DNA from: Minutocellus sp. GHC0000111
Taxonomy: Eukaryota
Length of the DNA stretch: 64,000 nt
Assembly (NCBI GenBank): GCA_977018835.1
Contig: OZ361256.1
Span: forward strand, 434,001-498,000
Direction: 5' to 3'
Made by a program: the position numbers and the translations under genes. The notes beneath the pieces were generated by a model. That model was not told where the DNA came from, ran no database searches, and was given only the letters and a program-made list of their open reading frames with translations. Shown piece by piece: positions 492-58,387 of this stretch; the first letter of the stretch is position 1; the number at the start of each line of letters is the position of its first letter.

Positions 492-893
492 GAGAAATTA
501 CTAAATGCTACACTGACACGACCCTAACCTCTACTCGCGTGGCGGGTTCCGATTCCGGGCCTCGGGCCTCGGGCCTCTCGGCCGTCTCGGCCGTGATTGG
601 TCCAGGTAGCCGAAGAGAAGGCTCCGGGTGCCTTGTTCGGAGCTCAAAGATGAGGCTCTTGCTGAGCAACGAGATTTGAGCTAGTCTAGATGCATCAATG
701 ACGCAAGAGTTGATAGACAAGGCACGATCAAGATCAAGAGAAAAGAGAGAGCAGAACGATAGGACGAACGGACTCACTCTTCTTGGTAAAGCAGGAGCTG
801 CATCGACTGAGAAGAGGATGTCGAGCATCGCTCGTCGATTCAAAAACACAGAGACGTTGGCTGCTGCTACATCTCTAGCTAGAAGCATTCATC

Positions 894-1557
894 ATGCCTA
901 GTAACGTTATCTCCCAGTGGAAGTACTACTTCAGCCCCCATCAGGACGATCCTCACTTTTCCGCGAACTACGTAAACAACCTTGTAATGGACAAGCTCAA
1001 GGACTTCTTTCCGGATGAACTTTTTTGCCACGGACGGAGGACTGTGCCAACGAGCTTGTCAAACGGCCCAACCTTCCCATCCTGTTCGTCGCGAAAAACA
1101 ACAGGCTCAAGGTCGCCTTTCTGCATCGTATCGTCTTAGAGAACGACGTTGATCCCAACCCAGCACTCGTGTCGATTGCCAACTCGGACCACAGAGCCAT
1201 TCCAGTCGAAATGGACCCTGAAGTGCTCTTTGCTCCAGTTGAAGACATTGACGTACCAACAGATTCGGCCCTCACAAAAGTCAAGTCAAGCTCGGACTTA
1301 GGAGGATTGCCCGTTTCGGCCACCACTAAGTTCAAAGGTCGCAATTGCATCGCTGTCCCCCCAGTCATGGCGTTTGCGGTGAGATGAATGCGCTGCTGAC
1401 GACAGCAACAAGCCAGATGAAGCCTTCCTTCCTAGATGTCGTGCATTTTCTCAAATCCTTTGATGATGCGAAGATCGATGAGATGCCAAAAGCGAAGAAG
1501 GCATGCATCCCCGCCCTCCGCTTCATCTGGGCTGCAAGCAAAGAGTTGATCCTGTAA
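894..1557 (+). pseudogene. Frameshifted ORF remnant, probably transposon-derived (possibly gag-like ORF of a YR retrotransposon)
   Basis: Three overlapping ORFs (894-1139, 1025-1387, 1345-1557) read as one protein-like sequence across frameshifts, at the edge of the TE island. The family guess is weak. Confidence 0.3.
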
Positions 1558-2234
1558 CTAAGTTCCCCGCTAGGGCCGAGTTGGTCCCATTTTAGGTTAG
1601 GCACTTCATGACATATGAGATTTCGCTAGCACTTTGCTCGCGTTGTCGGACGACGGAAAGACCGTCACTCATAAATTTTTTTCCCGAACGAAGCTCATCA
1701 TGGTGACCCCCGCTCCTGGCCGCTACACATTTGCAAGGTAAGATATGGGCATTTCCGAGGCTAGCCGATACCATTGCGCTACGTTTGCGAAAGTTTCATC
1801 TTGATTGGACTCTTATTGTATGAGAAAATATAATTCAAAACAATCAACCTGTGTTCGAGTACGCGAAAAAGGGCCGCGGATGAGAAGTGATACCGTGAGA
1901 GCCACAGCAGCCCGATCGACCCAGAATTGCAGAGACACACGTCCAAGACATACATGCAAATGTTTATGTGGTTGATTGTTGTATTTTTGATTCGTATCCG
2001 CCCCCGAATCGGCCGCCATTGAAAGCAAAATTTCATCCGGCGTCGTCGTTTTTGTGCGTGATTTTCTCCCCTCTTTTTCTCATCTTGCACTGCGAATTTT
2101 TGTGCCGGACCTTCTTGGTCACAAATCTCCATCAAGTGTAGATGTGTGACCCGCGCGCGGATGGCTTGCTCGCAGCAGCCTTTTCTCCATAATTCTGGGG
2201 AGAAAGTTGGTCCGGCGGTAACTTGTCATCACGT

Positions 2235-5200
2235 CACTTTCAAATCCTCTGAACTCGAAAGGTACAGAAAGGATGAGGCTAGACTATGCGAAGAATGCAT
2301 GATGCACACATGCAGTGGATATTGCATGAGACATCCAAAAGGAAAGAAGAAGAAGAAAAGATGCTGCCGTGCTGGGGCCGGAGAAGAAAAAACAAGAATA
2401 GAAACGACACTCCTGGTTTCCCAATGCGGGATGCTCCAGCTATTACTCACGACCACAGGGGATTTCTGAAACTCGAGATGCCACGGAATCATCCGCGTTT
2501 GGTCCAAGCTCCGCTAACAATTTTGAGAGGTTGGAGAGGTAATTGCGACTTTAAAATCCTGTTGTACAAATCCACGAATGGAAAACCACATCCCGAAGAA
2601 ATATCAACAGTGACCGACTATGTCGTCGCTTACCAATGCAAAGGAAATGAGAGAATCCAAGCTGAAATACAACTTCTCCGCGATTTTGCCTTAAAGTGAG
2701 TATGAATTAGTATTTGTATATTTTATGCTTCAATCTCAAACTAACAACGAGACTGCATGTTTTTATTATTATTTGAGAAAAGCGCTGAAACGATGACTGG
2801 GACAACAGCAGACGTCATCAGAGTGTCTCGACAAATGCTCAACCGATCAATTGCAAGCAGAACAATTCCAAAGCAAGAGTGTATGGTCGAACTAGCGGAA
2901 CTCCCGCTAGTCTTAAGTTCCGACACAACCGAAACAATGAACCTGTCAAGGAGTTACAAGATTAAATCGGATACTCACAGAGGCTTAGTGTCCCAATATC
3001 GAAAAATCGCAAAGAGCAATCCGACAATGTCACTACACGATTACGTTCGTAAGGCAATCAACGAGAAAAAGAGATCAGTGAAAAACGGAAAAAGGAAATA
3101 CAAAAACGTAATCCCGCATTACGTTGGGGCAAACGGTCAGCCGAAATACCCACCAACAAAAGAATACGCGATGGCAATTCTCATAGTACACAAACCATGG
3201 GAAGACAGCAAGCCAAAAAGAAGGAACGGAGCACAAGATTGGATCGACGAATTCAAAGAATTTGTCACATCAGAAGCGTGTCCAGAATTCGTGAAAATGG
3301 AATACGCACGAGTAAAAGAAAGAGCCGAGAGCAAGAGGCCATCCGAAGCGATATCATCAGAGGAGTGCTACGACTACGAGACACAAGCAGATGTTGACGA
3401 CTCAACCAAAGATCTTTTAAATATCATCACGACTCAAACACTGGCCACAGACCCGTTTTTAAATGTCCACGACCAAAAAATTAATAAAGGCCTACATTAC
3501 GACTGGTCCGAAAGAATGTCAGTAAGTCATTTATACCTGATTTATTTTCGTCGAATATTCAACAAACATAAATGACAAAAATACATCCAACAAGGGAAAT
3601 TTTTTGTTCGACACAACATCCGATATTTTTTTTAATTCTATCACGCATTTTTTTTTAAAAAAGACTAGGGATCCTTCATACCTAGGAGAGTCGTGGCTCG
3701 ATGAATTAACACAGGACTACCAAGCAGACCTCTCTGCCAAGCAGAGGGTAAGGCCTTTCACGATGACCCTCGACGGTGAAGTGACAAACATCACCATAGA
3801 CCACGTGAAAGATGACCAACTCGACGTGATTTTATTGGTAGTGGAAAACATAAAGAAATGGATAGAAAACGCAAAGGGAATCAACAAAAAGGATGCTAAA
3901 GAGTACAAGCCCCTTAGAATGACCGTAAGGGGAGCAGCAGGATCAGGTAAGAGTTTCTTCATTAAGGCCCTGGCAAATACGGTCAGAGAGATGTTTGGCG
4001 ATCAAAACGCAGTTCACATATCTGCGCCGACAGGAGCAGCAGCTCACAACGTCGGCGGCGAAACGATACACAGGAAATTCCAAGTAAATTCACACAGGCC
4101 AGAAAATGATATTGTTGGTAAGGAGGCGAAAGCTCGATTAAAGGAAACGAAAAGAAGAACAGTGGTCGAGATAATCGACGAGAGGAGCATGCTGACATGT
4201 AAAGTCGTGGGAGCAGCAGAAAGGCACACTGCAGAAGCAGCTCATGGAGGTTCCCACGCTAATGAAGACTGGGGTGGCACACCAGTGGTTGTATTTGTAG
4301 GCGACGACTACCAACTACCACCGCCAACAAATGTAGAGAAAGGAGCTTTCGATCTGATGGACAGCAAGACATCATTTTCACAACAAAAGCTAGGCGACGC
4401 ATCATTTGGATCACAACTCCTAATGAACATGTCAGAAAAATGCGTAGAGCTTAGGCGATCTCCACCCGCGCCGGTAAAGCTCCGGTAAAGAGAAAGGGGG
4501 ATTCCCTTTTCTTTCCCTCTCCGGCATAGCAGGTCCACCAATGCCTGTGTCGGTCAAAGTCGGTTTCGTCATAAACAGAATCTGTCCCATTGAAGTAGTC
4601 GGCAACTATGCGGCGATATGCACCTTCGAAGTCTAGATCCTTGTTTGGGGATCTGCCGGGACGAGAACCACCCCACACCGGTTCGTTGTGGTCTCACTTT
4701 CACTTTCATCGTCAATGTCATCACGCGCAGACCTCAACATGTCGCCAATAATTTGACCCATTGATGAGTTGGAGTGAGTGCTGGTCGCCAACTGATGGGC
4801 CAAGTCAAATTGTTCGTTTAGCATGTCATCCAATCCCGCGAGATGGTCGGTGTCGACGGTGCGATGAGAACCGGTGGGGCGAGCGAAAGAGCGGGAGGTA
4901 GACCGGGCCTCCGCCACATCTTGCCCTTGCATGTCATCACTACCAAAGGACTCCATGTTATTTGGCTGGCGCGTAATTATCCGATCAGTCCGATGCCGAA
5001 GTGATGGGATGCGCTGTTGTTGGAGACGAGATGTGCCGGTGTGCTCACGCAGGAGAGGGGTGCAAATAACGCGCGCAAAACGCTAACAAATCTTACCGTT
5101 TACCGGACGAATACAGACGCTGGTGGAGATCGCCTTAGTAGGTCAGTAAAACGTCAAAATGGAACACAGTCGAAGTTCAAGGAAGTGCTACAGAATCTAA

Positions 5201-5919
5201 GAACAGGAGACCCCACACACGACGATGCATCCTTTTTAATGAAGTTACATCTGGCAAACCTAACTCAAGCGGAGACAGAGGAAATGGAAAAGGACAAAGC
5301 AGCAATGCACATGTTCGCCACAAAAGCGCCACGAGACGAGCACAACGTGAGGAAGCTAAGTGAAAACGCATCCGACAGAAACCCCGCGGCACTAGTTAAA
5401 GCTTCATGGAAAACAAGCAGACGAGCAAACCTACAGTCCATCGCCCAGCACTTTGACAACCCACCAGATGCAGCAACTTTAATGTGCAGAGGGTCTGTGG
5501 TCAGAATCACAGGGAAAAATTTCGAGCCAGACTTTGGACTGTGTTCAACAACGCCATCGGAGCTGTAGAAGAAGTGGTGTTCAAACCAGGGAAAGACCCA
5601 AACAATGGGGACCAACCGAGTTATGTAGCTGTGAGGTTTGAAGGATGCAGCGGGCCAGCATGGGACGAGTCGGAACCAAAAATAGTCCCAATTCCAATGG
5701 TGACAAGAAGACGCAACAAAGGGTGCTGCGAAGTGACACATGCTGCCCCCACACTGAGCCTCTCATGCGGAGTGACAGCCCACACATTCCAGGGGCAATC
5801 AGCAGGACCAGTGGATGAAGGCCAACCAAAAAATGCAGTAGATTGTGTAGTGTTCTATCCAGGAAACAACAAATTCGAAGGAAACAACCCCGGCTTGTTG
5901 CACCTAGGTGCATGGGAAC
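2235..5919 (+). mobile_element. Helitron/Helentron-type Rep-Pif1 helicase gene, truncated and decayed, with probable introns (~2696-2780, ~3522-3663)
   Basis: Rep C-terminal region (WRGNCDFKILL, DYVVAYQCKG, IPKQECMVEL, IVHKPW). Pif1/SF1B motifs GAAGSGKS, APTGAAAHNVGGETIH, IIDERSM, VFVGDDYQLPP, VELSRSVKRQ (split by an insertion), TAHTFQGQS. Cut off by an LTR at 5920. Confidence 0.85.
4454..5134 (-). mobile_element. Non-autonomous PIF/Harbinger (Pong-like) element, 681 bp, inserted in the helicase
   Basis: TIR GGCGATCTCCACC(C/A)GCG (16/17 match); TTA target duplication at 4451-4453 and 5135-5137; subterminal CCGGTAAA repeats. Minus-strand fragment GGSRPGRSPNKDLDFEGAYRRIVADYFNGTDSVYDETDF resembles the N-terminus of Pong-type transposases. 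Removing the element restores VELSRSVKRQ. Confidence 0.9.
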
Positions 5920-6115
5920 TGTTGACACCGTGGGATACGTACGTACGTATACATACGTACGGTACGTACGGTGATCAGACCACTGACTCAGTGCCCTCTC
6001 CTGACCGTTGATCCATGGGCCAACGACATCTCCGATGGCCCATTTTTCATCTACGTAGGTCCTATTAACCTCTACTAGCTATATCTATCTAGCTTAGCTT
6101 TAGGACCTCTTAGCA
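5920..6115 (+). repeat. LTR copy 1 (196 bp, TG...CA)
   Basis: TGTTG...TAGCA; near-identical to 8407-8610 and 14421-14616. Confidence 0.95.
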
Positions 6116-7348
6116 GACCTACGTGATACATCTTTTCCACCCGTGCTCGCCCCATTTCGGTTCGCACCTCACCGGTTTGTCTTGGGTTCTCACTCGTCAC
6201 GCAAGAAAAACCGACACATCTTCAATCGGCCAAAACGACCGTTTCTTTCGACAACATTGGAACGACGATCCAATCCCTTCCCCGAAAGTCCTGACCAGAT
6301 CGACCCATCCAATCGATCACACTTCTCTGGATCGAACCTTCTGTCGATCACACGTCTCGCAGCAACACCGCCGTGCTGCCTGTCTTCTTCGCTGACTGAA
6401 ACACCAGCATGAATCCCGACGCAGTTTTTGGCCAACCTCTCGGCGCAGCGCCGATTCTCCCCAACAAGTTAATCACACGTGTGAATGACCCAGGACAACC
6501 TCCCCAACGCGAGCGTGTTGCCAAAGCGCTCAAGGAACTTCAACAAGCGGCGGCCAGCACTCCAGCAGGGTGCAATGACCATGACCTCGGCCATTTGGGC
6601 CTCGTCGTCAGCGATGCCGAACACACCACCAAAAGCAACGGCCGACCACATGTGCCTCCGGCAAATCCTGGCCCCAGCCCCACCATTCCCGCCGTGGCCA
6701 ATCTAGACCAACGCGATCGTGCAATCCGGGGACATTGCATCGAAAAGGGCCACTACAACTTGTGCGAGCAAGTCAACACGGCGCTCAAGAATCTCCTCCT
6801 CGACTCGATCGACGCCGTCCACATCAATCATCTCGAAGATGACATGCTCGGTTTCCAGCCAGTCACCATCCGCCAAATCATCGACAGCATTACCGATCGC
6901 TACTTGAAATTCAACGAGACTCAGAAGGAGGAATTAGAGAAGCAGCTCGAGAAGCAGCACGACGGGGGACCCATCGACACCCACATCGCCATGTTCAACA
7001 AAGTCTTCAAGGCGTTTGAAACGGCCGGCGAACCCTTCACCAACAAGCAAAAGGTCTCCAAGTTCTACCGCTCCGTGCGCAGGTTCTCATTGGCAAAGAA
7101 GGCATGCGAGGACTGGGACGACGACAGACCGGAGGCCGAACGCACGTGGGCCAACATGCAGTCGGACTTCCGCGATTGGTGTGATAAGAAGATGGCCAAC
7201 ACCACCACCGAAGCGGCAGGATGTCATGGCGCGAATTTGGCCTCATCGGCCTCGGACGATCCATTTCTTTCTCGAGCCGATCTCCTTTTGGCTGACACCA
7301 CCGAAGCCCTCAAGACCAACCAAGCCATGTTGGCGAACCTCGCAAAAT
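5920..7348 (+). mobile_element. 3'-truncated Ty1/copia element (LTR, 5' UTR and partial gag from 6409)
   Basis: Collinear and highly similar to 8407-~9838; similarity stops abruptly after ...ANLA. Confidence 0.92.
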
Positions 7349-7901
7349 TACATTTTGATTTGGTGCTTCCAAAAATGTGTGTTTTTTCCCGGGGTGAGGA
7401 ATGCATATGTCGAAAAAAATCATCACATAATGTACATTTATTGGTTCTGGTGCACAATATCTCTCGACTATATGTAGAAGTTGGTGACCATAACTTGGTT
7501 CTTGCCCCGACTTCCATCTTGGCCGTCATTTATTCCTCGGAGTTAGAAAAAGTGAGCTTGGATTTTTGGTCTGGTGTGGTCGTGGTATGAGGTAGCGCTT
7601 GTGCTGCTGTGTGAACTGTACGTTTCGGCCAGAGTCAACTTAGATCAGTGTATATTAGCACGACGATAGGACCTTCTCTCACGATGAAGTTTCATTCGGA
7701 TTGCTTCCTGCTGATGCCATGCTGCCTTGCTCGCGCTGCGATGCCGCAGAGTCATCGGCCGGCGACCGTCGTGCAAAATGTGGGTATCCAATGGCCCTTC
7801 TCAAAGCATACACAAAATGACGAATTGCCCGAGGTTTCCGAGGTTCGAGACAAATTGCTTTCCCGTCTTTTCTATTTTCAGAAATGCCAGCCTCTCAAAA
7901 G

Positions 7902-8406
7902 TCACGGCAGCATCAAACGAAACGGGGCAAGTGCACGGGATCTTTTTGTTGTAGCCAACAGCGGCATGCTTGCGACTTTTTGCCTGACCGTCGGATTTGT
8001 AGTCCTCGCATTGAAGTTCCAATCGCTCTCTGCAACAAACTCAGAAAGGCCGTAGATTTCGGCAATGTGGTCGCAAAGATGGCCGGCGGTCATGTCAGCA
8101 TTCTCGTCGTAAATGTCGCGCCAATCTTTGTCATTTTTTAGCGCATCGTTGACCTTAGCATCTGGAGAGAAATTCTGATTACGCGCAAGCTTTTCCACCT
8201 TCTGCTCCCTGGCGACTGACTCTCATGTTGATCATCATGATGCGCCCATTGAAATCAACGTCTTTGGTTTCATCCTTCATTGGTCGGCCAACAACTCCAA
8301 GATGCATAACTTTGACAGGGTGTCTTCTGGATCGAATTTTCGGGCTTGCCTCGGAAGCATGGACAGACGCGAGGTTCGGACTACTTAGTTCTTCGTCAGA
8401 AAGTGG
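7902..8406 (-). pseudogene. Fragment of a Tc1/mariner-like (plant-mariner/DD39D-type) transposase
   Basis: Minus-strand translation KIRSRRHPVKVMHLGVVGRP...DFNGRIMM...RVSR / KLARNQNFS resembles the K-V-M-F-L-x-x-V-A-R-P...F-D-G-K-I block of plant-type mariners. Frameshifted; cut by LTR2. Confidence 0.5.
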
Positions 8407-8610
8407 TGTTGATGCCGTGGGATACGTACGTACATATACATACGTACGGTACGTACGGTACGTACGGTGATCAGACCACTGACTCAGTGCCCTCTCCTGA
8501 CCCTTGATCCATGGGCCAACGACATCTCCGATGGCCCATTTTTCATCTACTAGGTCCTATTAACCTCTACTAGCTATATCTATCTAGCTTAGCTTTAGGA
8601 CCTCTTAGCA
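8407..8610 (+). repeat. LTR copy 2 (5' LTR, 204 bp; one extra GGTACGTAC unit)
   Basis: TGTTG...TAGCA; aligns to the other two LTRs. Confidence 0.95.
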
Positions 8611-8902
8611 GACCTACGTGATACATCTTTTCCACCCGTGCTCGCCCCCCATTTCGGTTCGCACCTCACCGGTTTGTCTTGGGTTCTCACTCGTCACGCA
8701 AGAAAAACCGACACATCTTCAATCGGCCAAAACGACCGTTTCTTTCGACAATATTGGAACGACGATCCAATCCCTTCCCCGAAAGTCCTGACCAGATCGA
8801 CCCATCCAATCGATCACACTTCTCTGGATCGAACCTTCTGTCGATCACACGTCTCGCAGCAACACCGCCGTGCTGCCTGTCTTCGCTGACTGAAACACCA
8901 GC

Positions 8903-10185
8903 ATGAATCCCGACGCAGTTTTTGGCCAACCTCTCGGCGCAGCGCCGATTCTCCCCACAAAGTTAATCACACGTATGAATGACCCAGGACAACCTCCCCA
9001 ACGCGAGCGTGTTGCCAAAGCGCTCAAGGAACTTCAACAAGCGGCGGCCAGCACTCCAGCAGGGTGCAATGACCATGTGACCTCGGCCATTTGGGCCTCG
9101 TCGTCAGCGATGCCGAACACACCACCAAAAGTAACGGCCGACCACATGTGCCTCCGGCAAATCCTGGCCCCAGCCCCACCATTCCCGCCGTGGCCAATCT
9201 AGACCAACGCGATCGTGCAATCCGGGGATGTCACATCGAAAAGGGCCACTGCAACTTGTGCGAGCAAGTCAACACGGCGCTCAAGAATCTCCTCCTCGAC
9301 TCGATCGACGCCGTCTGCATCAATCATCTCGAAGATTACATGCTCGGTTTCCAGCCAGTCACCATCCGCCAAATCATCGACAGCACTGCCGATCGCTACT
9401 TGAAATTCATCGAGACTCAGAAGGAGGAATTAGAGAAGCAGCTCGAGAAGCAGCACGACGGGGGACCCATCGACACCCACATCGCCACATTCAACAAAGT
9501 CTTCAAGGCGTTTGAAACGGCCGGCGAACCCTTCACCAACAAGCAAAAGGTCTCCAAGTTCTACCGCTCCGTGCGCAGGTTCTCATTGGCAAAGAAGGCA
9601 TGCGAGGACTGGGACGACAGACCGGAGGCCGAACGCACGTGGGCCAACATGCAGTCGGACTTCCGCGATTGGTGTGATGAGAAGATGGCCAACACCACCA
9701 CCGAAGCGGCAGGATGTCATGGCGCGAATTTGGCCTCATCGGCCTCGGACGATCCATTTCTTTCTCGAGCCGATCTCCTTTTGGCTGATGCCACCGAGGC
9801 CCTCAAGACCAACCAAGCCATGATGGCGAACCTCGCCAAAAAGAGCAACGAGAAGGATGATACCATTGCCAAACTTCGCCAAGAAACAGCTTCACTCAAG
9901 GCCGAGAACCGCGTTCTGCGTGAGGGACGCAACCATGCTGGTGGCAGTGGAGGCTACCGCGGCGGTGGCCAGCAGAACGGCGCCGGCCACTTCCCAGGCC
10001 AAGGTCCTAACCTCAACCGCCAGGAGAAGCGGGAACTGCAGTCGATCCTCCCCAGAGGCCATCATTGCCACACGTGCGGCTATTCGTCCAACCACCCCAG
10101 CTTTGAATGCACTTGCAAAGGGCCCAACCACGTTGATAACGCCACCAAGTGCAATCCTTGCGGTGGTAGCTCGCGTCGTAACTGA
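8903..10185 (+). pseudogene. Copia gag (frameshift near 9077), C-terminal Cys/His knuckle
   Basis: ORFs 8903-9202 and 9091-10185; knuckle CHTCGYSSNHPSFEC; ends in TGA in frame with pol. Confidence 0.85.
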
Positions 10186-13100
10186 GCGGGAGGGACGGTG
10201 GATATTAATCAGTGTAAAATAGAGGATGGCATGTCTGAATCCACCTCCTCCCCGCCTTCGTTAGCTTTTCTTACGTCAAAAAGCAAACCTCCAACTCAAG
10301 AGCCAATCGTCCTCGCAGCAGATACTGGAACGACGGGACATTTTGTCCAGAAGCCCCAATGCCTGTCGTGCGATGGCCCTATTTTCAACGTCCAACAGAC
10401 AGCAATTCCTATCAGCGTCACCCTTCCGGATAATAGCACAATGACGAACACCCACGAGGCCACGCTTCGCCTCCCTGGGGTTCCCCATCGGCTAGCAAGG
10501 CCTATATTTTCAATAACATAACATCATCGCTCCTATCGATTGGGCAGCTGTGTGACGATGGATGTGTTGCCACTTTCGATAAGGATTCGGTAGTCATCGC
10601 CAAGGACAATGCCGTCATTTTGCAAGGTAAACGAGACCCCTCAACGAAATTGTGGATGGTAGATCTTAATTGCTCGCCCACCATGTCGCCGCTCCCCGGC
10701 CCCAACGTCATCCAACATGCTGCCAACGCCGCAATTGCCCAGGAGACGGTTCCGGAACGTGTAGCCTTTTTACATTGGTGCGCTGGCAGTCCTCAGCTAT
10801 CTACCTGGTGCAAAGCAATCGATGGGGTTTTTTATTGATCTTGGCCAGGCCTCACATCAAAGCTTGTACGTAAGCACATGCCACAGTCGATACCGATGAT
10901 TAAAGGTCACTTAGACCAGCAGCGCAAGAACATCAGGTCGACCAAGCCCAAACGGTCGATGGCTACGCCAAAATCTCTCCCTGGGGTGGACGAAACCGAG
11001 CAGGATCTCCACCCGGCACAACACCAACAGCGCACCAACTATGTCTTTGCTGATTGTCATGACATAACGGGCCAGATCTTCTCAGATCAGCCCGGCCGTT
11101 TCTTGGTATCGTCTATTTCTGGCCACCAGTACATAATGGTCGTCTATGACTATGACTCCAACAGCATCTTGGCCGAACCAATGAAAAGCCGATCGGGAAC
11201 GGAAATGCGCCGAGCGTGCCAAACTATTTTCGAATACCTCTCCAAGCGAGGATTTCGCCCAAAATTGCAACGATTGGACAATGAAGTGAGTCGAGAGCTG
11301 AAGGAGTTCATGGAAGAAAAGGATGTAGATTTTCAATTGACCCCAACGCACTCCCACCGCCGAAATGCGGCCGAACGAGCCATTCAAACCTTTAAGAATC
11401 ATTTCATTGCGATTCTCTGTGGTACCGATCCCGACTTTCCCCTCATCTTGTGGGATAAATTGCTGGAGCAGGCGGTAATGACCCTCAATTTCCTGAGAGC
11501 ATCCCGAGTCAACCCTCGACTATCAGCGTACGAGCAACTCAATGGCGGCTTTGATTTCAATCGCACGCCTCTCGGCCCCCTCGGATGCAAGGTCATCTTT
11601 CACGAGATGCCCTCGGCACGCGGCTCTTGGTCCCCGCATGGCGTTGATGGGTGCTATGTCGGTCCAGCCATGGAACACTACCGGTGTTACAAGGTTTGGA
11701 TTGAGGAAACTCGGGCGGAACGCACTGGTAACACACTCGTCTGGCTCCCCAAAATGATTCCGGCACCCAAAACGTCGTCGGCCGATGCAGCAATAGTCGC
11801 AGCTCATGAACTCCTGCACGCTCTACAGAATCCACATCCAGCGGCACCCCTTGCTCCCCTTCGAGACGAGCATCGTCAAGCTTTAGAAAAGCTCTCCGAG
11901 ATTTTCAACAGCGTGACCCCAGCAGAATCTGCCACCTCCGCCTCTGATGAGACGATGCAGACAACCGCAGCTCCGAGGGTGCTGGAGAACGATGACGACT
12001 CCCAACGATTCCGCCACGGTGCCATCGTCGCCAAAGTGTTTGGAGATCGCAATTACAAGGGTAGAGTCGTTGCATTTGACAAGAAGTATAAGTACTACAA
12101 AATCAAATACGAGGACGACGACGTAGAAGAGATGAACGAGACTGAAGTAGGCCGTCACCTTGTCTCCAACCCCAACGCTCCGTTACCTCAGCCCCATCAA
12201 CCTCCGAGGGTGGCAAAATCCTCCACATATGATGCAGCCACCACTAAAAGCCGTCGATCACGTCGATCCAACGCGCCACCTCGCTCGTCAGTTTCTTCCA
12301 ACTACTACAATCCTTTGGCTGCAGTAGACGAGCCCAACGGCGACGATGATGATAATCATGACGACGATGCAACCGTCGTAACATCCAATCAAAGTTCCAA
12401 TGCCCCCACCTCCCGTCGGCAACGTAAACGCAAGTCTCCAACGATCGATACCACTCCAACATTACCAGCTCCAGCAAAATCGACAAGCAAGTCCAAACCA
12501 TCGACCGCCAAACCACCTCGACGACGATCATGCCGTCAGCGAGGGTACATTCCACATCAGAACCCTCCCCCACGGCCATCATCTCGTCGTGGTGCCCACC
12601 ACGTGGCCAACATGGCAGCGTTCTCGCCTTTACCAAACCTCCAACACTTTGCTAACGCCGTCGTCCATCCCGACACTGGTGCAATGCTTGAACACCGCGA
12701 CCTCCTCAAAACGAACATGAGGGACCAATTCATTCAAGCAAACATCGATGAAATTGGACGGCTAACGGACGGCCGAGTTGGAAACAGTGCTAGCATTCCC
12801 TCCAATGCAATGGCTTTCGTCCACTGGTCCGAACTGCCTCGGGGGGAAAAAGCCACATGCCTCCGCATTGTCGCCGACTGTCGCTCCCATAAACCAAATC
12901 CCAATCGAGTTCGATGGACTGCAGGAGGCGACAAAATTCATTGCCCTGGTGCAGTCTCGACCCCGACCGCTGAAATGTTGACTGCAAAGTTACTTTTCAA
13001 CAGCGTCATCTCTACAGACAACGCTCGTTTCATGGGAATTGATATCAGTGACTTCTATCTCAATAGCACCATGCCAGAGCCAGAATGGATGTGGGCGCCA

Positions 13101-14372
13101 GTAGCTCTCATCCCCGACGAAGTCATGGAAGCCTACGACCTCCACGACAAAGTAAAAAGAATGGTCGAGCATTGGTCAGAATCGATGGCGGAATGTATGG
13201 ATTGCCCCAGGCAGGGCGCCTAGCCTACGATAAACTTGTCAAGCATCTCAAACCCCATGGCTATTTCCCTTGCAAGCGTGCTGCAGGCCTTTGGAGGCAC
13301 AACACCCGCCCAATTACCTTTTGCCTAACCGTTGACGATTTTGGAGTGAAGTGTGTCGGGAAAGAGCATGCAGACCATCTCATTCAGGCCCTCAACTCCA
13401 AGTGTAAGATCACTACCGATTGGGAAGGCCGACTTTGTTGTGGTGTTCAACTCGAGTGGAACTACGAGGCCAAATGGGTGGATCTATCTATGCCTAACTA
13501 CGTCAAGGAGATGCGCCACAAGTTCCAACACGACCGCCCCTCACGGCCCGAGCATGCGCCATGTCGATGGAATCGTCCGACGTGTGGCCCGGGACCCCAG
13601 CTGCCAGAACCGGAAGACGACTCACCACCACTCGACGCCAAAGGCATCAACGAAATTCAACAGGTGGTGGGCAGCTCCTTGCACCATGGTCGAGCAATTG
13701 ATTCAACAATTTTACCGGCGCTCAACAGCATCTCAGCGGAACAATCCAAAGCTACCGAGCGCACTCAACAAGATGCCAAGAAGCTTCTAGATTACCTTGC
13801 AACCCATCCCGACGCAGTCATTCGATACGTCAAGTCAGACATGATCCCACATGTGCACAGCGACGCCTCCTGCTTGTCAGCCCCGAAATCAAGAAGCAAG
13901 CTCGGAGGGCACTTCTACCTAAGCTCCCGACCTAAGGACCCGCACCGCCAGCCTGACTCAAGTGATCCCATGCCACCAATGAATGGAGCCATCCTCGTCA
14001 ATGCCAATGTCATCAAGCATGCAATGTCCTCAGCCGCTGAAGCCGAATTGGGAGGATTATTTTTCAACATGAAAGATGCAGTGCCAATCCGGGCAGCACT
14101 AGAAGAAATGGGTCACCCGCAGCCCCCTACTGCTATCGTCGTTGACAACTCTACAGCATCTGGAATCGCCAATAAAACCGTCAAGCAAAGACGGTCTAAG
14201 GCTATGGACATGAGATTCTGCTGGGTCCAAGATCGCACAGAGCAACGACAATTCCATCCAGGTGCACTGGCGGAAAGGAGCGCAAAATTTGGCCGATTAT
14301 TTTACAAAGCACCATCCCGCCCGCTACCATGTCAACATGCGACCAGTCTACTTACATGTAGATTCCAATTAG
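10186..14372 (+). pseudogene. Copia pol (protease, integrase, Tudor-like domain, RT, RNase H) with frameshifts and a stop
   Basis: PR ADTGTTGHF; IN KGHLDQ, FSDQPGRF, RLDNE, RRNAAERAIQTFKNHF; RT GIDISDFYL, GMYGLPQAG, LTVDDFGVK; RH HSDAS, SSAAEAELGGLF, VDNSTA, RSKAMDMRF, NLADYFTKHH. Confidence 0.93.
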
Positions 14373-14420
14373 GACTCTACATGTAGATTCAATGGCACTA
14401 GTCATTGATCTGCGAGGGTG

Positions 14421-14616
14421 TGTTGATGCCGTGGGATACGTACGTACGCACACATACGTACGGTACGTACGGTGATCAGACCACTGACTCAGTGCCCTCT
14501 CCTGACCGTTGATCCATGGGCCAACGACATCTCCGATGGCCCATTTTTCATCTACGTAGGTCCTATTAACGTCTACTAGCTATATCTATCTAGCTTAGCT
14601 TTAGGACCTCTTAGCA
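14421..14616 (+). repeat. LTR copy 3 (3' LTR, 196 bp)
   Basis: TGTTG...TAGCA, preceded by the purine-rich tract. Confidence 0.95.
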
Positions 14617-15117
14617 TGTCTACCCGAGGAGACACCCACACCCGAATGGGTGTCGGGTGCCGGTTTTTGCCGGGTGGGTGGGGGCAGATGTTCTACCCAC
14701 CCGACCAACGCATGGCGATGGGTGACACCCACCCGACACCCATCGTTGCAGACGTGTGGATGGGTGGCTAGATGGGTGTGAAAATTGCCTCATCTCTAGG
14801 CCAAATTTGCATGCAACTTTGCACAACAGCCACCACGAACAACGCCAAAATCCCCCTAAAAGTGGCCACCAAGAGCTCAAGGTGCCCACCACAGTGAACT
14901 TTTAGCAGAAGAACTCGGCTTTGCCGAAGAAAAATCTGAGTTTGAGCCTCTCATGCACCCAAAATTAGACACCCATTGCCCATGCCCGATGCCCGCCACT
15001 TCAAGCAAGCATGCAAATGGGTGCCTGCCCGTCTACCCACACCCATCCAGAATTCTCTTCGGGTAACACCCGACACCCACCCACCCATGACAAAAAGTGG
15101 TCGGGTAGACAACCCTG
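14617..15117. mobile_element. hAT-like MITE whose left TIR is clipped by the LTR
   Basis: Right end TCGGGTAGACAACCCTG implies the TIR CAGGGTTGTCTACCCGA; the left end retains TGTCTACCCGA directly after LTR3. Many ACCC/GGGT subterminal repeats. Confidence 0.7.
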
Positions 15118-18267: not shown

Positions 18268-18600
18268 CTATTCAGCACCGCCATCATCACCTACCAACCT
18301 CAGGGCAAAGTTCTCTGCCTTTGCTTGCACGGCTATGCGCAGCAGGTACTGATCCTTGAAGTAATTCACCTGCGAGAGATGATGCACACCGTCCGACGAT
18401 TGAGCCTCGTCTGTGAAGTTGACCCAATCGATCATGACAACATTCTCAACTCCATTGCGACGGAGGATGTCTTCCATGTCTGCATTGAATGCCATAACGT
18501 TGGACTTTGCTTGGTGCGGAAACTTGCTATCCATCACTTGGGCCTGCAAACCAAGTGAATTCCAAAGCAGTGTCGTCTTGCCCATGTCTTGACAGGATCG
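18268..18600 (-). pseudogene. Isolated C-terminal fragment, possibly of an SGNH/GDSL-like hydrolase
   Basis: IDWVNFTDEAQSSDGVHHL resembles the DxxH block; no upstream coding part is visible. Confidence 0.35.
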
Positions 18601-18801
18601 ACTAGCTAGCATGTGACGTGTGGTGTACGTACCGGTGCGGTGGGCAGCAGCCGCAGTAGCGTTTTGAGAGAGAGGGCAGAGGGCAGTCGAGGAGAGTCGT
18701 AGTAGTTTGAGTCGAGTCTAAATCTAGGATTCCTGCGTGTTGTTACAATACACTCTTATTAGCGGCTCCTAGGATTCCTCGGTCTACGTAGCTACTAGAC
18801 T

Positions 18802-20691: not shown

Positions 20692-20950
20692 GCTGCCTAT
20701 TCACTCTGAGCTTGATTCGATTCGATTCTACGATTCGATTCATTCGTTCAGGCGCGTCATGGTGATGTGCCCGTATCTTTTGGTTGGCGGCGCGCGCGGC
20801 GCCGGGGGGCGGGGGCGGCCGGGGGGCGGGGGCGGCCGGGGGGTCGGCTTCGCTGCTTCCTCGAATGGGGCCTTCCGATTCCTTGTGCCATCACTTTCGA
20901 ATTTCCCCGATACTTAAAACCAGATCGCTCAGCCTCTCACAGCAAGCAAG

Positions 20951-23519: not shown

Positions 23520-23568
23520 GTCGCTAGTCAGGTGGTGGTGATTGAAATGAGTGTGTTGAAGACTTACT

Positions 23569-23651
23569 AAGAGGTGTTTTACTACGTAATGATGGCGCGA
23601 GGGGAACTTTCCTTTGTTTTCACGTGCTTGAGATTGTAGTTGGTGCCTCTT
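23569..23651 (+). promoter_or_regulatory. Candidate SECIS element in the 3' UTR
   Basis: Helix I AAGAGGTG/TGCCTCTT and ACTAC/GTAGT; core ATGAT (23589-93) opposite TGAG (23629-32); ~11-bp helix II with G-U pairs; apical AAC at 23605-07. Begins 50 nt after the stop. Confidence 0.75.
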
Positions 23652-23748
23652 TTACTATGCCTTCGATTTGGGACGATAGCACCACAAAAGTAGTTCAACT
23701 CTATAATATAATGCTCTATGTGCAGCATAGCTATCGTCATTGAATCCT

Positions 23749-24748: not shown

Positions 24749-24910
24749 GGTTGAATGTTCCGCCGCGCCGGTGGAACGGTGGAAAATGGTGGGCCGGCCG
24801 GCCGGCCCGCCAAAAGAAACCCGGAAAAAGCGGGGACACGCATGATGTGTCATTTTTCCAGATACGCATACGCACGCCGCTCTCGAGGAACACACGCGCT
24901 TGTAGTAGCC

Positions 24911-25990: not shown

Positions 25991-26160
25991 CAGTCAGCGA
26001 GAAGAATGGCTTGTAAATGGATAGAATTAGCTCTGACTAGCTAGTGCAGCATCTTCATTTACAAATTATTGTCAAAATGCTATTAATGTAGCATTTGCAA
26101 AATAGATTAAAGTCTACGGTCGTATGCGGTGCCTCGGGATATCCAGTGCTGCAAATAAAA

Positions 26161-32220: not shown

Positions 32221-32344
32221 AAGTGTGTGTACTACAGTCAGATCGTATTTTTCTTCTTAGTAGGAGGCGAGGGTACGCATAAGATTGTGCAGTAATATGA
32301 ACTTAATTAATAGGTAGCGACGCACTACTGCTAATGCTGACTAG

Positions 32345-52381: not shown

Positions 52382-54987
52382 TTACGTGCTGCTGCTGTTG
52401 AGAATGGTCTTGCCTCCGCAGCTAGGATTGTCTTTGAGGTATTTCTCGTAAGCACGAATTCTGCCCCCCAATCCAGTATACTTGGCACTGCCCTTTGTTT
52501 TGGGTTCCATGCCTGCACTTTTTTCATATTCAATCATTTCTGATAGGCATCTCTTCTGAATTGCATCTGCTGCTATCATCAACTCTTCTTTCTTGATCAT
52601 GTCTGTACCAACCGGAGGACGGTAGATAATGTTCTTTTCCTCTTCAGTCCAAACCTTTTTCACTAGGCGAAGGCAGTTATTCATCAACTTGCCATTTTTG
52701 GATACATCGATGAACGGAACGGTCGGTCCTTTGCGTGCGCAGAACATTGATATGTCTTGGACGTTTTGGAGCAAGCCTCGTTTACTCATTTCCTGGAGAG
52801 CATAGGATATGGTAATGTTGGCATCGCTGGATCTGGTGTCAGTGGCTGTGCGGTCCGTCCATCGCAAGGACAAATTTAGGGATCCAGTGGCAGCGGTAGC
52901 AGTGGCAGCAGCGGCGGCAGCAGAGAGATGGGCAGTTGTTGTGCCACGTGTAGGAGCAGTGCTGGTGGTGCTGGTGCCGGTACTAGGAGAAGTGGTGCGT
53001 GCTGGGGCTGAGGGAGGCCGATCCGCACTTGAAGACTCTCTAGTGGGGGCGGTAACATTGTTTGGAGGCGGCAAGGAAAGTCGACGTCGTTTGTTTGCGT
53101 CTACCTGTGGCCCCGGTGGGATAGACGGAGGTGGTGCCGGCAAATCGATACCTTGGCTCCGAAGTAGCGCCTCCAGCATGGCTCGCTGGTGCTGTATTTG
53201 GGCGTCACGGTGGGCATCGGCTTCGTCACGGCAACGGTGCTCACGTCGAAGACGATCTACCTCCTCAGAGAGAAGATTATTCTTCGCCTCCGACTCCCGT
53301 CTTGCAATCCGATCCTGCATCAGCATTCTCTCCAGGCCAGTTTGCTTCTTCAGGAGAGTCTCGATGTCTGCCTTCTCTTGTCCATTCCTTGGCGAAGGTG
53401 GATAGTTCTTACTGATAAAGTCGTCTTTTATTGCTTTAGACCACAACTGTAAAGTAGAAATAAACGAACATACATGTACTTGTGAGATTGTTTCGACCGC
53501 CGTATAAAACACATGTGCAGTAGCAGATGCACAATACAACACATACGCACCAGAAGACCTTCATCTCCAACACCAACATCTTTAGCTGCATTGCGCAACG
53601 TCTCCACCACCAGATTTCCGTTTGGATATCTTTTCGATACTTCTGGGTGATACATAATTAAAGATGCCACCATCGTCTTCGTCATTGACTCCAACCTCCC
53701 TCCAGGCTTGAGTTCCGGCACAGACACAACAAATAATTTCTCTGCAAATTTCGCAACAGTGTCGGCATCGACCTGCAGAGCAAGAAGTGCATTTAGGCTT
53801 GGCGGGTACACTCGCTCTTGGGTGTTTGGCCAATTGGCAAGGGCCCTAGCAGGAGGAAGGATCAAGGCCGGTAGATCCATGGTGTATTTTTCACTGTTGT
53901 CTGCCCGCGCGAAGCCACCGAGTGACCGTTGCATGTCTTCGTGGATGTTCAAGTGGGCAGCTAGAAAGGAATTGAATCCACGCCGTATGCCTCTTGACGA
54001 GGTAAGATCCTTAAGCTTCTCATCGGTCAGCTTCTTCATGAGGGTAGTAATCTTGCTCGCAACAGAATCGGCCCCTACGTCTACAAACTGTCTGAACATG
54101 TAAGCATTCTTCACATCCGTCGGATCGCTCCGGTAGAATCCGCCTTCAATGCCGTAGCACCCCATGGCATGGTAGAAGTCAAATGCCCAGCTATCGTGAT
54201 CGCTGACAAAAGGCACATCCTTCTGATTCAACACCTTGATCTGTGTCCACAGACCCATGGCACACTGATAAAAATCATCCCACCAGACAGTATTCCATTT
54301 GAGGAACTTTGCCTCACTACCACGGGCACCAGCGAGGTAGAGCGCAATCAGGACGGCCCGATACTCACATGGCGCTTCAATGCCCAAAGGAAAAGCAAGA
54401 AGCTGCTCACACATGTTCTCAAGGTCCCTCCCCTTGCAATTCGCCCACACTCCTTCCCAATCTCCTGTCTCCAGACGCTGCCGAAGGCAACAGAGGTCTT
54501 GTTCGAGGCGCCGAACCATGGGGCGGACCTTAATGCTCGTCGTGTCGTCATCAGACCGATGAAGCCGCCGAATAACACCAGTACTGGTTGACTGTCTGAG
54601 GATATTGTACCATTGGCCTGCTTCGTCGTGGTCTTTCCAAATCGGAAGGTCCGGGAACGAATCCCTCATTACCTCCTTCACCTGCCCGAAGTATTGCATC
54701 AGAGAAGAGCTGCCGAGATCCTTGTCCGTGTTACCTCTCTGCTTGATGTCCTCGTTGACGATCCATATACTGAATCCCAAAAGTTCTCGCTTGATAAAAT
54801 CGCCAATCTGTTCTTTGCCATCAGAGAGACTGCGATAGGTGTCATACTCCGCCTTCAACGACGCCCAACTTTCGTCGATGTGTGACTTCCACTTATCATA
54901 AATGGCAAGAGCGCTGGTCCTGCCGCTGACGGTGCTCGCAGCAAGGCCAAGCCCTCGAGACGCGGACGTAACGCTCGCGCCGCTCAT
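52382..54987 (-). mobile_element. Crypton-like tyrosine recombinase gene (833 aa after splicing intron 53550-53447)
   Basis: YR pattern: AGARGSEAKFLKW (R), TQIKV (K), TSSRGIRRG (HxxR position), SLGGFARADNSEKY (Y). The phase-0 GT-AG intron joins a coiled-coil/low-complexity C-terminal exon. Confidence 0.75.
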
Positions 54988-55306
54988 GGTTGTATATCGC
55001 TGCTAAATGGGGCCCGACGAACAAAATGGCAATGCTCTATCGAACGAACGACGGAAAGACGAAATACTCATTTTTTCGTTCGAAGCTCTGCCCCGCTCAA
55101 GCTCTCTCCCGCAAACCGCCGCGTGGCATCAACCACCAGCACAAAGACCAAGTCATCAATTCCATCGATATCGGCGCATCGTATTGCGCAAAAGGGGAAA
55201 AGGTGGGAGCTCTTTCTCCGCCCTTCGGCCAAGGATCCGCTCTCGAAGTAAGTGCGACCAGGTGCAACGAGACCTCATTCTTGCTCAGCCCATTCCAAAT
55301 CCCAAC

Positions 55307-58300
55307 ATGGCGGCTGCATCCTCCAAGGCCGAGGACAAGGAGGACTCCTCATCCCCCAAGAAGCAGGCAAAGGAGACGACCAAAACAAAGATCAAATCGT
55401 CGTCGTCCTCCTCCTCGTCTTCCACCAAATCATCATCGTCGGATGGATTCCTCGAGTCCTACTTCGGTACCACCACCCTCCGCTTCGTCTACGCCAGCCT
55501 TTGGTCCATCGTCTCCCTCCAGATCTTCCTCAAAGTCGTCCACGAGGCCTACGACATCCGCCTCCACGCCATCAAGGAGTACGGGATGATCATCCACGAG
55601 TTCGACCCGTGGTTCAACTACCGCGCGACGGAGTACCTGTACGAGCACGGGTGGTATGCCTTCAAGACTTGGTTCGATTACAAGGTCTGGTATCCCCTCG
55701 GCCGGCCCGTCGGCACGACCATCTACCCCGGCATGCAGGTGAGCAGCGTCCTCATCAAGAAGGTGCTGGGTGATCGCATGTCCCTGAATGATGTTTGCTG
55801 CCTCGTCCCCGCCTGGTTCGGTGCCGTTGCCACAATATTCACCGGACTCATGGCCTACGAGGCATGCGTGGGAATCAAGCAGCAGCCCCGGCAGCAGCAA
55901 CAAAAGGGAGCTAAGGGACAGACTGCCAGCATAAAGCCCAAGCCATCCGATCCAGAGGTATTTAGTTCCATCCTGGCCACCGTCCCCGTCGTCAATATCT
56001 TGCACCGTCGTCTCGTCCTGCCGATTGCCGAACTGCTCGTACGGGTCATCACGTCCATGTTTGGTTCCGACCTGGGCCTGGTCGACGTCCCCCCACCCGG
56101 CACTCCTCCCACCCTGTCGTCTCCGTCGATCGAATCCTTCCTCTCGGCGGCGGCCATCATGGCCGTCGTACCGGCCCATCTCATGCGGTCCGTCGGGGGC
56201 GGGTACGACAACGAATCCGTCGCCATGACGTCCATGACCATGACGTTCTATCTGTGGATGAGGGCCCTGCGCGGCGGCAGGGACAATTCCCGCAGCGGGC
56301 TGATCTGGGGCATCCTCGCCGGTCTGGCCTACTTTTACATGGTCGCTGTTTGGGGCGGGTACATCTTTGTGATCAACATCATTGGCGTCCACGCCGGCGT
56401 TTTGGTCCTGCTGGGCAGGTACTCCACCAAGCTCCATCGGGCCTACACGGCATTTTACATCGTCGGTACGACTCTTGCCATCCAGGTCCCCGTGGTGGGA
56501 TGGACGCCGATCCGATCTTTGGAGCAGTTGGGGCCGATGGCGGTGTTTGTTGGCTTTCAGATGATTGAATACTGCGAAGTGATGAAGCGGAAGAACAATC
56601 TCAGTCGCAAGGACACATGGATCCTCCGCATCAAGGTGTTTGGCGCAGCTCTGTTGGTGGCCGTTGCCGTCGTGGCGGCGTTGGTTCCCACCGGGTACTT
56701 TGGTCCCATCAGTGCACGTGTCCGTGGATTGTTCGTCAAGCATACCAAGACGGGCAACCCCCTCGTGGACTCCGTGGCGGAACACCAGCCGGCATCGGCC
56801 GAGGCATACTTTCAGTACCTGCACGATGTGTGCTACATTGCCCCGATTGGATTTGTCATTGTCGCTCTCTTTTACTTCCATGATAGCAGTTCCTTCCTCT
56901 TGGTGTATGGCGTCGCGGCATATTTCTTCAGTCATCGGATGGTTCGTCTCATTCTTCTCACGGCGCCCATTGCCTCGGCTCTTGGTGGTATTGCCATGGG
57001 CAGCATCATTGGTTGGTGCCTTCGTGGCATCTCTCCGTACAGACCAAGCGTGTCGGATTTGTTCAAGGTTTTCTGGTCGGACGAGGAACCTGCTGCTGAT
57101 TCGAAGGACAAGACGAACACGTCCAGAAAGGGCGGCGACAAGGAGTCCTCCTCTTCGTCCCAGGACGGTCGAAGCTCCATGGTGCAGATTTCTCGCCTGG
57201 TTGTTGGCTACATGCTTTTGAACACGGCCCTTCCTTTCGGCGAAGAGTTTTATCACCGGTGCAGAGAAATGGCCAAACACATGTCGCACCCGACCATTGT
57301 CTACAAGGCCAATGGTCACATGGGAGAGGAAGTTTTGGTGGACGATTACCGCGAGGCGTACTGGTGGTGCCGAGACAACACGCCGGAGGATGCTCGCATC
57401 ATGGCTTGGTGGGACTATGGCTACCAAATCACTGGTATCGGCAACCGAACGACAATTGCGGATGGCAACACGTGGAACCACGAGCACATTGCTCTTCTTG
57501 GTAAGACCTTGACCAGCTCCGAGAAGGAGGGGCACCGCATTGCTCGTCATCTTGCCGATTACGTCTTGGTATGGGCTGGTGGAGGAGGCGACGACTTGGC
57601 CAAGAGTCCGCACTTGGCACGCATTGCCAACAGTGTCTACCGTGATCATTGTCCGAACGACCCCACCTGCCGAACCTTTGGCTTCTCCAACCAGGGCATG
57701 CCCACTCCTAAAATGGCCGGATCTCTCCTTTACAAGCTCCACAGCCACGATCTGGTCCCGGGTGTTCAGGTCGACAAGAATCGTTTCAAGGAAGTCTTCA
57801 AGAGCAAATATGGCAAGGTTCGCATCTTCAAGGTGTTGAGCGTGGCCAAGGATAGCAAGGAATGGGTCGCCGACCCGAAGAATCGCATCTGCGACGCTCC
57901 GGGAAGCTGGTTCTGCCGTGGCCAGTATCCACCGGCATTGAAGAAGGTTCTGGACCAGAAGCGAGACTTTGGTCAGCTCGAGGATTTCAACAAAAAGCAG
58001 GTCGACGAGGAATACCAAAAGCAGTACATGGAGCATTTGAACGATCCCAGCATAGCCAAGAAGGTGGCTAATCAGGGCGCGTCGTCCTTTGTTCGACCGC
58101 CGCAGGAGGAGGTTGACGAGCTTCAGAAGCGCGAAAACTGGCAAGATACTCCGTACACCAGCATTTTGTGGACCCTCATCAATGATAACAACATCCCCGA
58201 GCTGAAGGAATACCTCATTGCCAACCCACTCGTTGCGCACATGCGAAGTGCCGATGGCCGTGGGCCAATGTTTTGGGCACACGAGTATGGTCGGGAGAAG

Positions 58301-58387
58301 ATTGTCAAGATCCTCCGTAAGGTTGGCGTGAGCGAGAAGCTTCCTGACAAGGAGGGCCTAACCCCATTGGATGATAGCGAAATTTAA
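55307..58387 (+). CDS. STT3: Oligosaccharyltransferase catalytic subunit STT3 with C-terminal ankyrin-like extension
   Basis: IIHEFDPWFNYR, WYPLGRPVGTTIYPG, GGYDNE, SVAEHQP, WWDYGYQI, DGNTWNHEHI. Confidence 0.97.
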   Translation: MAAASSKAEDKEDSSSPKKQAKETTKTKIKSSSSSSSSSTKSSSSDGFLESYFGTTTLRFVYASLWSIVSLQIFLKVVHEAYDIRLHAIKEYGMIIHEFDPWFNYRATEYLYEHGWYAFKTWFDYKVWYPLGRPVGTTIYPGMQVSSVLIKKVLGDRMSLNDVCCLVPAWFGAVATIFTGLMAYEACVGIKQQPRQQQQKGAKGQTASIKPKPSDPEVFSSILATVPVVNILHRRLVLPIAELLVRVITSMFGSDLGLVDVPPPGTPPTLSSPSIESFLSAAAIMAVVPAHLMRSVGGGYDNESVAMTSMTMTFYLWMRALRGGRDNSRSGLIWGILAGLAYFYMVAVWGGYIFVINIIGVHAGVLVLLGRYSTKLHRAYTAFYIVGTTLAIQVPVVGWTPIRSLEQLGPMAVFVGFQMIEYCEVMKRKNNLSRKDTWILRIKVFGAALLVAVAVVAALVPTGYFGPISARVRGLFVKHTKTGNPLVDSVAEHQPASAEAYFQYLHDVCYIAPIGFVIVALFYFHDSSSFLLVYGVAAYFFSHRMVRLILLTAPIASALGGIAMGSIIGWCLRGISPYRPSVSDLFKVFWSDEEPAADSKDKTNTSRKGGDKESSSSSQDGRSSMVQISRLVVGYMLLNTALPFGEEFYHRCREMAKHMSHPTIVYKANGHMGEEVLVDDYREAYWWCRDNTPEDARIMAWWDYGYQITGIGNRTTIADGNTWNHEHIALLGKTLTSSEKEGHRIARHLADYVLVWAGGGGDDLAKSPHLARIANSVYRDHCPNDPTCRTFGFSNQGMPTPKMAGSLLYKLHSHDLVPGVQVDKNRFKEVFKSKYGKVRIFKVLSVAKDSKEWVADPKNRICDAPGSWFCRGQYPPALKKVLDQKRDFGQLEDFNKKQVDEEYQKQYMEHLNDPSIAKKVANQGASSFVRPPQEEVDELQKRENWQDTPYTSILWTLINDNNIPELKEYLIANPLVAHMRSADGRGPMFWAHEYGREKIVKILRKVGVSEKLPDKEGLTPLDDSEI

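Follow-up and report, generated by a model that had tools for sequence, protein, structure and literature searches.

TpA-specific A-to-G changes on both strands of Copia and helicase transposon DNA in a probable diatom genome

The closest described counterpart of the signature reported here comes from Bigelowiella natans, in which Mettrop et al. found TpA>TpG/CpA hypermutation of integrated nucleocytoplasmic large DNA virus (NCLDV) and virophage DNA (bioRxiv 10.64898/2026.01.13.699255). According to the main text of that preprint, TpA>TpG/CpA accounted for 230 of the 231 mutations that arose de novo in two viral inserts of mutation-accumulation lines, at about 1000 times the background rate and in some lines only, and TA-poor coding sequences were enriched for reverse transcriptase (RT) and DDE domains; an ADAT2-like deaminase is proposed by its authors, as yet unproven. 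Fungal repeat-induced point mutation (RIP) has been described as introducing C:G>T:A transitions, mostly at CpA, into the repeated DNA of ascomycetes (PMC2621366), and Escherichia coli TadA is reported to edit UACG, its derivatives preferring TA (PMC12265680). Here we analyzed a stretch of 64,000 nucleotides (the window; positions 434,001 to 498,000 of contig OZ361256.1, Minutocellus sp. GHC0000111) in which a Copia-type retrotransposon block cuts a helicase gene. The transposon DNA at 5140-14616 of the window has very probably undergone a mutational process that turns A into G at 5'-TA, mostly in TAC and TAT, on both strands. The mutated block consists of the following parts:

5140..5919, + strand: 3' part of the helicase gene, TA>TG/CA-mutated (homologue tyrosine columns, contig differences), cut by LTR1
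5920..6115, + strand: long terminal repeat 1 (LTR1; TG...CA), 22 TA remaining
6116..7347, + strand: copy 1 leader and truncated gag (gag TA observed/expected ratio, O/E, 0.19)
7348..8406, no strand: spacer, two very high-depth repeat pieces flanking a low-depth piece (contig depth)
8407..8610, + strand: LTR2, the 5' LTR of a near full-length element
8904..10185, + strand: copy 2 gag (TA O/E 0.27)
10198..14405, + strand: Copia-type pol with protease-like, integrase-like, Tudor, RT and RNase H-like parts (tblastn with the relatives P0001 and P0002; Pfam on relatives)
14421..14616, + strand: LTR3, two TA>CA changes relative to LTR1

The substitution spectrum of pol was determined at the 972 codons where P0001 and P0002 agree, single-transition changes being classed by context and set against the unchanged chances. 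Among testable TA sites, 33 of 147 (about 22%) had changed, 22 to TG (A>G) and 11 to CA (T>C), compared with 1/709 of the other A/T sites; at AA the count was 0/205. CpG transitions (7/247) were not elevated over those at other C/G (14/747), and C>T at CA, the direction of fungal RIP, occurred at 2 of 253 nonsynonymous chances. The classes do not cover 21 transversions and four multi-step changes. When frameshift edges were dropped differently, the counts became 32/146 for TA, 2/707 for other A/T (Fisher p 6e-24), 6/240 for CpG and 15/745 for other C/G. The C/G-class changes and the transversions are divergence between subfamilies. Consistent with the CpG counts, the CG O/E is 0.95-1.05 in gag and pol; it falls to 0.59 in the helicase tail and 0.56 in 14617-15115. 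The Copia copy is thus only partly mutated at TA and has no CpG excess, so that the two processes are uncoupled here.

The base 3' of the changed A was C in 19/63, T in 12/30, G in 2/32 and A in 0/22 cases, which gives 31/93 changed sites for TAY (Y, pyrimidine) and 2/54 for TAR (R, purine; p 1e-5). TAY also makes up 24/27 events in the read sets and 17/20 in the copy pairs against a background of 50-57%, with a few sites common to the sets. Along pol, TG and CA hits are interleaved, with 16 runs observed and 15.7 expected (strand clustering p 0.62). Both strands are therefore hit within one copy, a point that the first-pass annotation had singled out for checking.

The same direction of change emerges from the tyrosine codons. 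P0001 is an intact relative of 1399 aa, 86% identical to the window pol, and its 57 Tyr read 16 Cys, 7 His, 2 Phe and 32 Tyr in the window, with 0 Arg; no window Tyr reads Cys or His in P0001. Every pol motif in which Cys or His had been suspected of replacing a conserved Tyr has Tyr in P0001. Twenty-five columns carry Tyr in 80% or more of 120 homologues; in the window, 8 of these columns read Cys and 2 read His, whereas the 120 homologues taken together show 1 Cys and 31 His over 2928 cells, with no single homologue reaching three. Of the ten sequences that cluster with P0001, eight show at least 99% identity and no Tyr change. The remaining two, P0124 and P0128, share 94-97% identity with the window copy (P0124 96%), and Tyr reads Cys or His at 5/17 sites in P0124 and 3/8 in P0128. 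Three Tyr sites are His in the sister copy P0124 and Cys in the window. A site at which intact copies keep TA while one copy shows TG and a second shows CA can have arisen neither from CG nor by ordinary RIP.

At the DNA level, the outgroup locus L001 (77% identical over 2.9 kb) has TA at 105 sites, 39 of which are TG or CA in the window; in the opposite direction, L001 has TG or CA at 15 of the window's 84 TA. Among the L001 gag tyrosines, two read Cys in copy 1 and 4/5 read Cys or His in copy 2. TA as the ancestral state is hence borne out by the homologue Tyr columns, by P0001 and by L001. Two further related Copia loci, L005 and L016, show strong CG loss (O/E 0.24) and intact Tyr columns; in that other host, CpG has decayed and TA has not been lost.

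Comparison of the two copies within the window, by global alignment of 5918-7350 with 8405-9843, recovered all six CA/TG doublets that had been picked out by eye (5926/8413, 6733/9229, 6736/9232, 6820/9316, 6992/9488, 7296/9789), as well as all six sites with TA in one copy and TG or CA in the other (6255/8752, 6481/8975, 6636/9132, 6755/9251, 6892/9388, 7186/9679). Besides the six doublets there is one AC/CA pair, and about 0.5 adjacent double differences would be expected by chance. TA-class changes do outnumber the others, accounting for 18 of 28 differing bases in 5920-7347, and the others number 10 rather than the roughly eight first counted. The alignment also bears out the TATA of LTR1 as CACA in LTR3. 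What had been taken for a 5' copy at 5920-7348 is alignable, and its actual content is one LTR and a gag fragment only. Derived alleles are common to LTR2 and LTR3 (8413/14427), and two gag Cys are common to both copies; such sharing cannot tell inheritance from recurrent mutation. Against the low TA O/E of the two gags (see above), pol has a ratio of 0.55, compared with 0.60 for the host block and 0.49 for the STT3 gene. TA depletion by dinucleotide ratio is thus visible in gag and not in pol, and ratios in 1-kb and 250-bp bins do not delimit the mutated region, gag excepted.

Contigs of four public runs were compared with the window over 5100-14700, namely X2 and the Illumina RNA runs X7, X10 and X14 from three studies. 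Contigs drop rare variants; single-site depths were not taken as allele frequencies, and absence of the window allele at 5300-5355 was not counted. Among the 40 listed of 201 differences in the transposon block, 31 belong to the TA/TG/CA class, compared with 3 among the 40 listed of 293 in the host block. The ratio of transitions to transversions in X2 is 136/13 in the transposon block and 99/72 in the host block (18300-38200), which includes genes, intergenic DNA and silent sites and where 3/18 listed transitions are of the TA class. The window's derived G recurs in Illumina contigs at 13437 and 13872 (X10), 12951 (X7), and 10151 and 10214 (X14), and Illumina contigs have TG or CA where the window keeps TA at 6064, 6083, 6755, 9861, 10204, 10220 and 10324. 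The short-read check against base-calling artefacts thus had a clear outcome, with TA, TG and CA alleles all carried by Illumina contigs of other studies. Host genes are identical to run X2 over kilobases. Summed contig depth in X2, which is not copy number, is about 14 in the host block, 70-130 in the helicase tail and 700-15000 in the Copia block, a contrast indicating that the mutated parts are repeated DNA. Nowhere in the block is contig depth higher than in the two repeat pieces of the spacer, 7348-7584 and 7939-8406 (10000-15000 in X2).

Two genes of the window served as further controls:

55307..58387, + strand: STT3 gene (Pfam STT3), TA 2/99 changed
53428..55002, - strand: intact tyrosine-recombinase-like gene, TA 1/49 changed

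STT3 keeps the motif WWDYGY, as the first-pass annotation had noted. The gene at 53428-55002 keeps 13/13 Tyr shared by P0220 and P0221, and two unshared Tyr of P0220 read His. Its 519-aa product has no Pfam match and seven homologues, its Atlas neighbours are NDC10/phage-integrase/DUF3504, and we take it to be a Crypton-like tyrosine recombinase. Together with the 3/40 of the host block, the two genes support confinement of the TA excess to mobile DNA.

The changes extend beyond the retrotransposon. The helicase gene is interrupted upstream of its mutated tail, and its other portion is the following:

2745..4452, + strand: PIF1-helicase gene, 5' part (Pfam PIF1, E 5e-15); probably Helitron-like

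The helicase tail shows Tyr>Cys at 5646, where 12/12 homologues have Tyr, and Tyr>His at 5901, where 9/9 do, so that the Tyr loss suspected in FEGC and LLHLG is real. All 13 listed differences between the tail and other copies have G/C in the window and A/T elsewhere, and 8/13 lie in TA context. The 5' part has 4/29 TA changed and a TA O/E of 0.64; other classes are raised there too because the homologues are distant, so that any TA loss in this part is slight or indistinct. A gradient of TA changes outward from LTR1 is suggested. The spacer 7348-8406 also carries TA/TG/CA alleles, at 7381, 8009, 8033, 8303 and 8304. Hits on two strands in one copy, in a non-retroelement helicase and in spacer repeats point to action at the DNA level and not to editing of retroelement RNA.

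Seen beside B. natans, as far as its main text goes, the locus shares the near restriction of A>G/T>C to TpA in pol (33/147 vs 1/709), which is less strict in the helicase tail (8/13). It also shares the chromosomal action on both strands, with sister copies carrying CA and TG at the same site, and the confinement to foreign or mobile DNA (here 31/40 vs 3/40 listed differences, from one 20-kb control). B. natans differs in being a rhizarian with mostly single-copy viral inserts and de novo mutations, whereas here a likely diatom carries multi-copy Copia and helicase DNA and the evidence is copy comparison. The TAY preference was found here, and the B. natans main text is silent on trinucleotide context and on diatoms. 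The first-pass annotation knew of no description of such a system in diatoms. The signature itself is described in B. natans; in our literature searches for a diatom or transposon report, which covered few subscription papers, only the B. natans preprint matched.

RIP, as outlined in the source cited above, likewise consists of dinucleotide-specific transitions on both strands, concentrated in repeats, but it makes TA, whereas here A:T>G:C changes remove it. The early label 'reverse RIP' names a likeness to RIP in outcome, in the opposite direction. By contig depth, every part that was hit is multi-copy; this accords with a trigger of the RIP kind, the premeiotic pairing of duplicated sequences, but is no test of it. 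TadA and adenine editors share the A>G outcome and the T or U before the A, and the native UACG fits TAC; in contrast to the putative enzyme here, TadA natively acts on tRNA, its DNA activity being described as laboratory-evolved (PMC12265680).

On balance, adenine deaminase chemistry of the TadA/ADAT kind, encoded by the host, is somewhat more likely than not. A host adenine deaminase would convert adenine to inosine at 5'-TA(Y) in the chromosomal DNA of silenced or repeated sequence, and inosine would be copied as G at replication. A TA once turned into TG or CA would offer no further target on either strand; a site spent after its first change would account for the lack of Tyr-to-Arg replacements. 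Chromatin state, small RNA or the pairing of copies might direct the activity to mobile DNA, and the erosion of Tyr codons may point to a role in defence. More tentatively, and with the odds somewhat against it, this could be an ancient defence across SAR (stramenopiles, alveolates and Rhizaria), common to diatoms and chlorarachniophytes, in which a natural TAY-preferring DNA adenine deaminase, directed at transposons and integrated viruses, would mutate their chromosomal copies without any dependence on CpG methylation decay; the window would then hold a young Copia family part-way through this process.

Several observations weigh against these readings or narrow them. The LTRs are TA-rich, each retaining 20-24 TA, and hits in pol are uneven, with 9/72 in the 5' half and 24/75 in the 3' half (p 0.006); the Tudor/linker part of pol is least changed (1/20). 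A strict TA motif is contradicted by 5/13 helicase-tail differences that are A/T>G/C outside TA (3 AA, 1 GA, 1 TG). STT3 and the recombinase-like gene are under selection and so are not neutral controls; for this reason the host-block read control carries the weight, and it consists of 40 of 293 differences from a single 20-kb block. TA is self-complementary, so a change of T is indistinguishable from a change of A. The pol at 10198-14405 is also broken by three frameshifts plus stops relative to P0001, and the TA changes need not have been what inactivated it, which bears on defence. No deaminase was found among the 41 window open reading frames (ORFs) scanned with Pfam. Breadth across diatoms is not borne out by 80 metagenomic relatives, none of which has the signature or more than two Cys/His at conserved Tyr; the 80 metagenomic loci and 120 pol proteins, mostly intact or collapsed sequences and little informative on range, yielded no second hypermutated copy.

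Some alternatives are hardly compatible with these data. CA/TG pairs can be derived from CG, and the helicase tail and 14617-15115 have a low CG O/E, as decay of methylated CG would have it; yet the affected sites are Tyr, not Arg, Cys or His, in the 120 homologues, and CpG transitions are not raised. Ordinary RIP (CA/TG>TA) acting in other copies is contradicted by window Tyr never being Cys or His in P0001. Both are refuted for gag and pol by the homologue Tyr and the CpG counts, and their overall probability is negligible. A base-calling artefact of long-read assembly, which the several small indels in the element might suggest, is just as implausible given that the window G, and TG/CA at window-TA sites, recur in Illumina RNA-seq contigs from three studies. 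ADAR-like editing of element RNA or cDNA before integration would fit the excess of sense over antisense A>G in pol (22/82 vs 10/64), which is not significant (p 0.11), and a U 5' of the edited A is typical of ADAR (cited in bioRxiv 10.64898/2026.01.13.699255). However, one third of the hits in one copy are sense-strand T>C interleaved with A>G, the helicase gene and spacer repeats, without reverse transcriptase, are also hit, and TAG is disfavoured (2/32). RNA or cDNA editing of the ADAR/APOBEC type, confined to one strand and to retroelements, is largely refuted by the two-strand hits and the helicase hits, and we regard it as very improbable. Only slightly less improbable is that TA is hypermutable genome-wide, selection purging the changes from genes and leaving dead transposons marked. 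The selected STT3 and recombinase controls and the pseudogene state of pol would allow this, but the host block, with its intergenic and silent sites, shows 99/72 (X2) and 3/18 listed transitions in the TA class, its TA O/E is 0.60 vs 0.19-0.27 in gag, and the mutation bias measured by mutation accumulation in Phaeodactylum tricornutum is given as GC>AT (PMC6604790).

Two explanations deserve somewhat more credit, though both seem unlikely. Thymine might be the target, with a TET/JBP-type enzyme oxidizing it at 5'-RTA to 5-hydroxymethyluracil (5hmU) and 5-formyluracil (5fU) and T>C being fixed by mispairing; the palindromic TA fits T or A equally. A dinoflagellate TET/JBP enzyme is described as making 5hmU that is repeat-enriched and transposon-silencing, but the available text of that report links 5hmU to neither T>C hypermutation nor a TA motif (PMC11572971). 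Our literature search for 5hmU in diatoms found nothing, and the TAY context agrees with TadA's UAC. Marginally less likely still is a route without deaminase, in which A>G errors come from a base mark at TA (e.g., methyl-adenine) or from an error-prone polymerase that works in silenced chromatin. The five non-TA A/T>G/C differences in the helicase tail would fit patch repair, and the changes are patchy along the element. Errors of polymerase eta, however, fall on TA and AA alike, and AA sites in pol are unchanged (0/205).

If the deaminase interpretation is true, a natural chromosomal A-to-G enzyme aimed at mobile DNA would add a second chemistry to mutational defence, next to RIP and APOBEC, and would be nature's equivalent of the adenine base editors made in the laboratory. 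The likely diatom case extends the signature to another SAR branch and to transposons. Candidate enzymes could be screened by the TAY motif, and genetic tools exist for diatoms. Estimates of LTR age and consensus sequences of diatom transposons would be biased by a mutation class that does not follow a clock.

The element has the features of Ty1/copia: LTRs of the form TG...CA, gag followed by pol, and integrase before an RVT_2-type RT. RVT_2 matches residues 914-1107 of P0001 (E 2.5e-5, below the curated cut-off), with weak SH3_retrovirus/DDE matches upstream, and a PDB search with P0001 gave no match. A Tudor domain (PTM/DIR17-like; Pfam E 6e-12) lies in the integrase-RT interval, at 12018-12153 of the window and 608-652 of P0001; P0001 and P0002 both have it, and it is absent from the domains listed for the remaining 118 pol homologues. 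By analogy, this domain may be a chromatin-reading targeting module; the chromodomain of chromoviruses is an analogous targeting module. With the CoDi Ty1/copia elements of diatoms, compared by description only, the element shares TG...CA LTRs, an RVT_2-type RT and recombined loci without matching target-site duplication, and it differs from them in the Tudor domain between integrase and RT (PMC2806351). The accessible sections of that paper make no mention of RIP or point mutation in CoDi. No matching target-site duplication was found round the Copia element, the flanks GGAAC, AGTGG and TGTCT being different, and the block is likely rearranged because they do not match. Two smaller elements adjoin it:

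4455..5133, no strand: non-coding insertion, presumably miniature inverted-repeat transposable element (MITE)-like, that ends in inverted repeats, is flanked by two TTA triplets and interrupts the helicase
14617..15111, no strand: small element with inverted ends, left end apparently cut by LTR3 (TA O/E 0.41, CG O/E 0.56)

Helicase homologues continue from 4452-4455 directly to 5140-5143 without the 4455-5133 insertion, which we assume to be PIF/Harbinger-like. The 14617-15111 element lacks about 6 bases at its left end beside LTR3, and this truncation, taken with target sites that fail to match, suggests that two insertions have recombined.

GT-AG introns spanned by RNA contigs mark the window as eukaryotic, and its gene content is diatom-like, with two Fea1-domain genes, STT3 and bZIP genes (Pfam). 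The ORF at 24755 has an ASAF-like start, which we read as plastid-targeting. The two Fea1-domain genes stand in tandem at 48637-51106 and are presumably iron-uptake genes of the ISIP2a-like kind. A degraded coding-like stretch at 900-1560, which is poor in TA (2 and 4 per 250 bases) and lacks a Pfam match, is perhaps another TA-mutated relic. At 23507-24413, run X1 has 940 other letters replacing 905 window letters, which is an allele-specific replacement.

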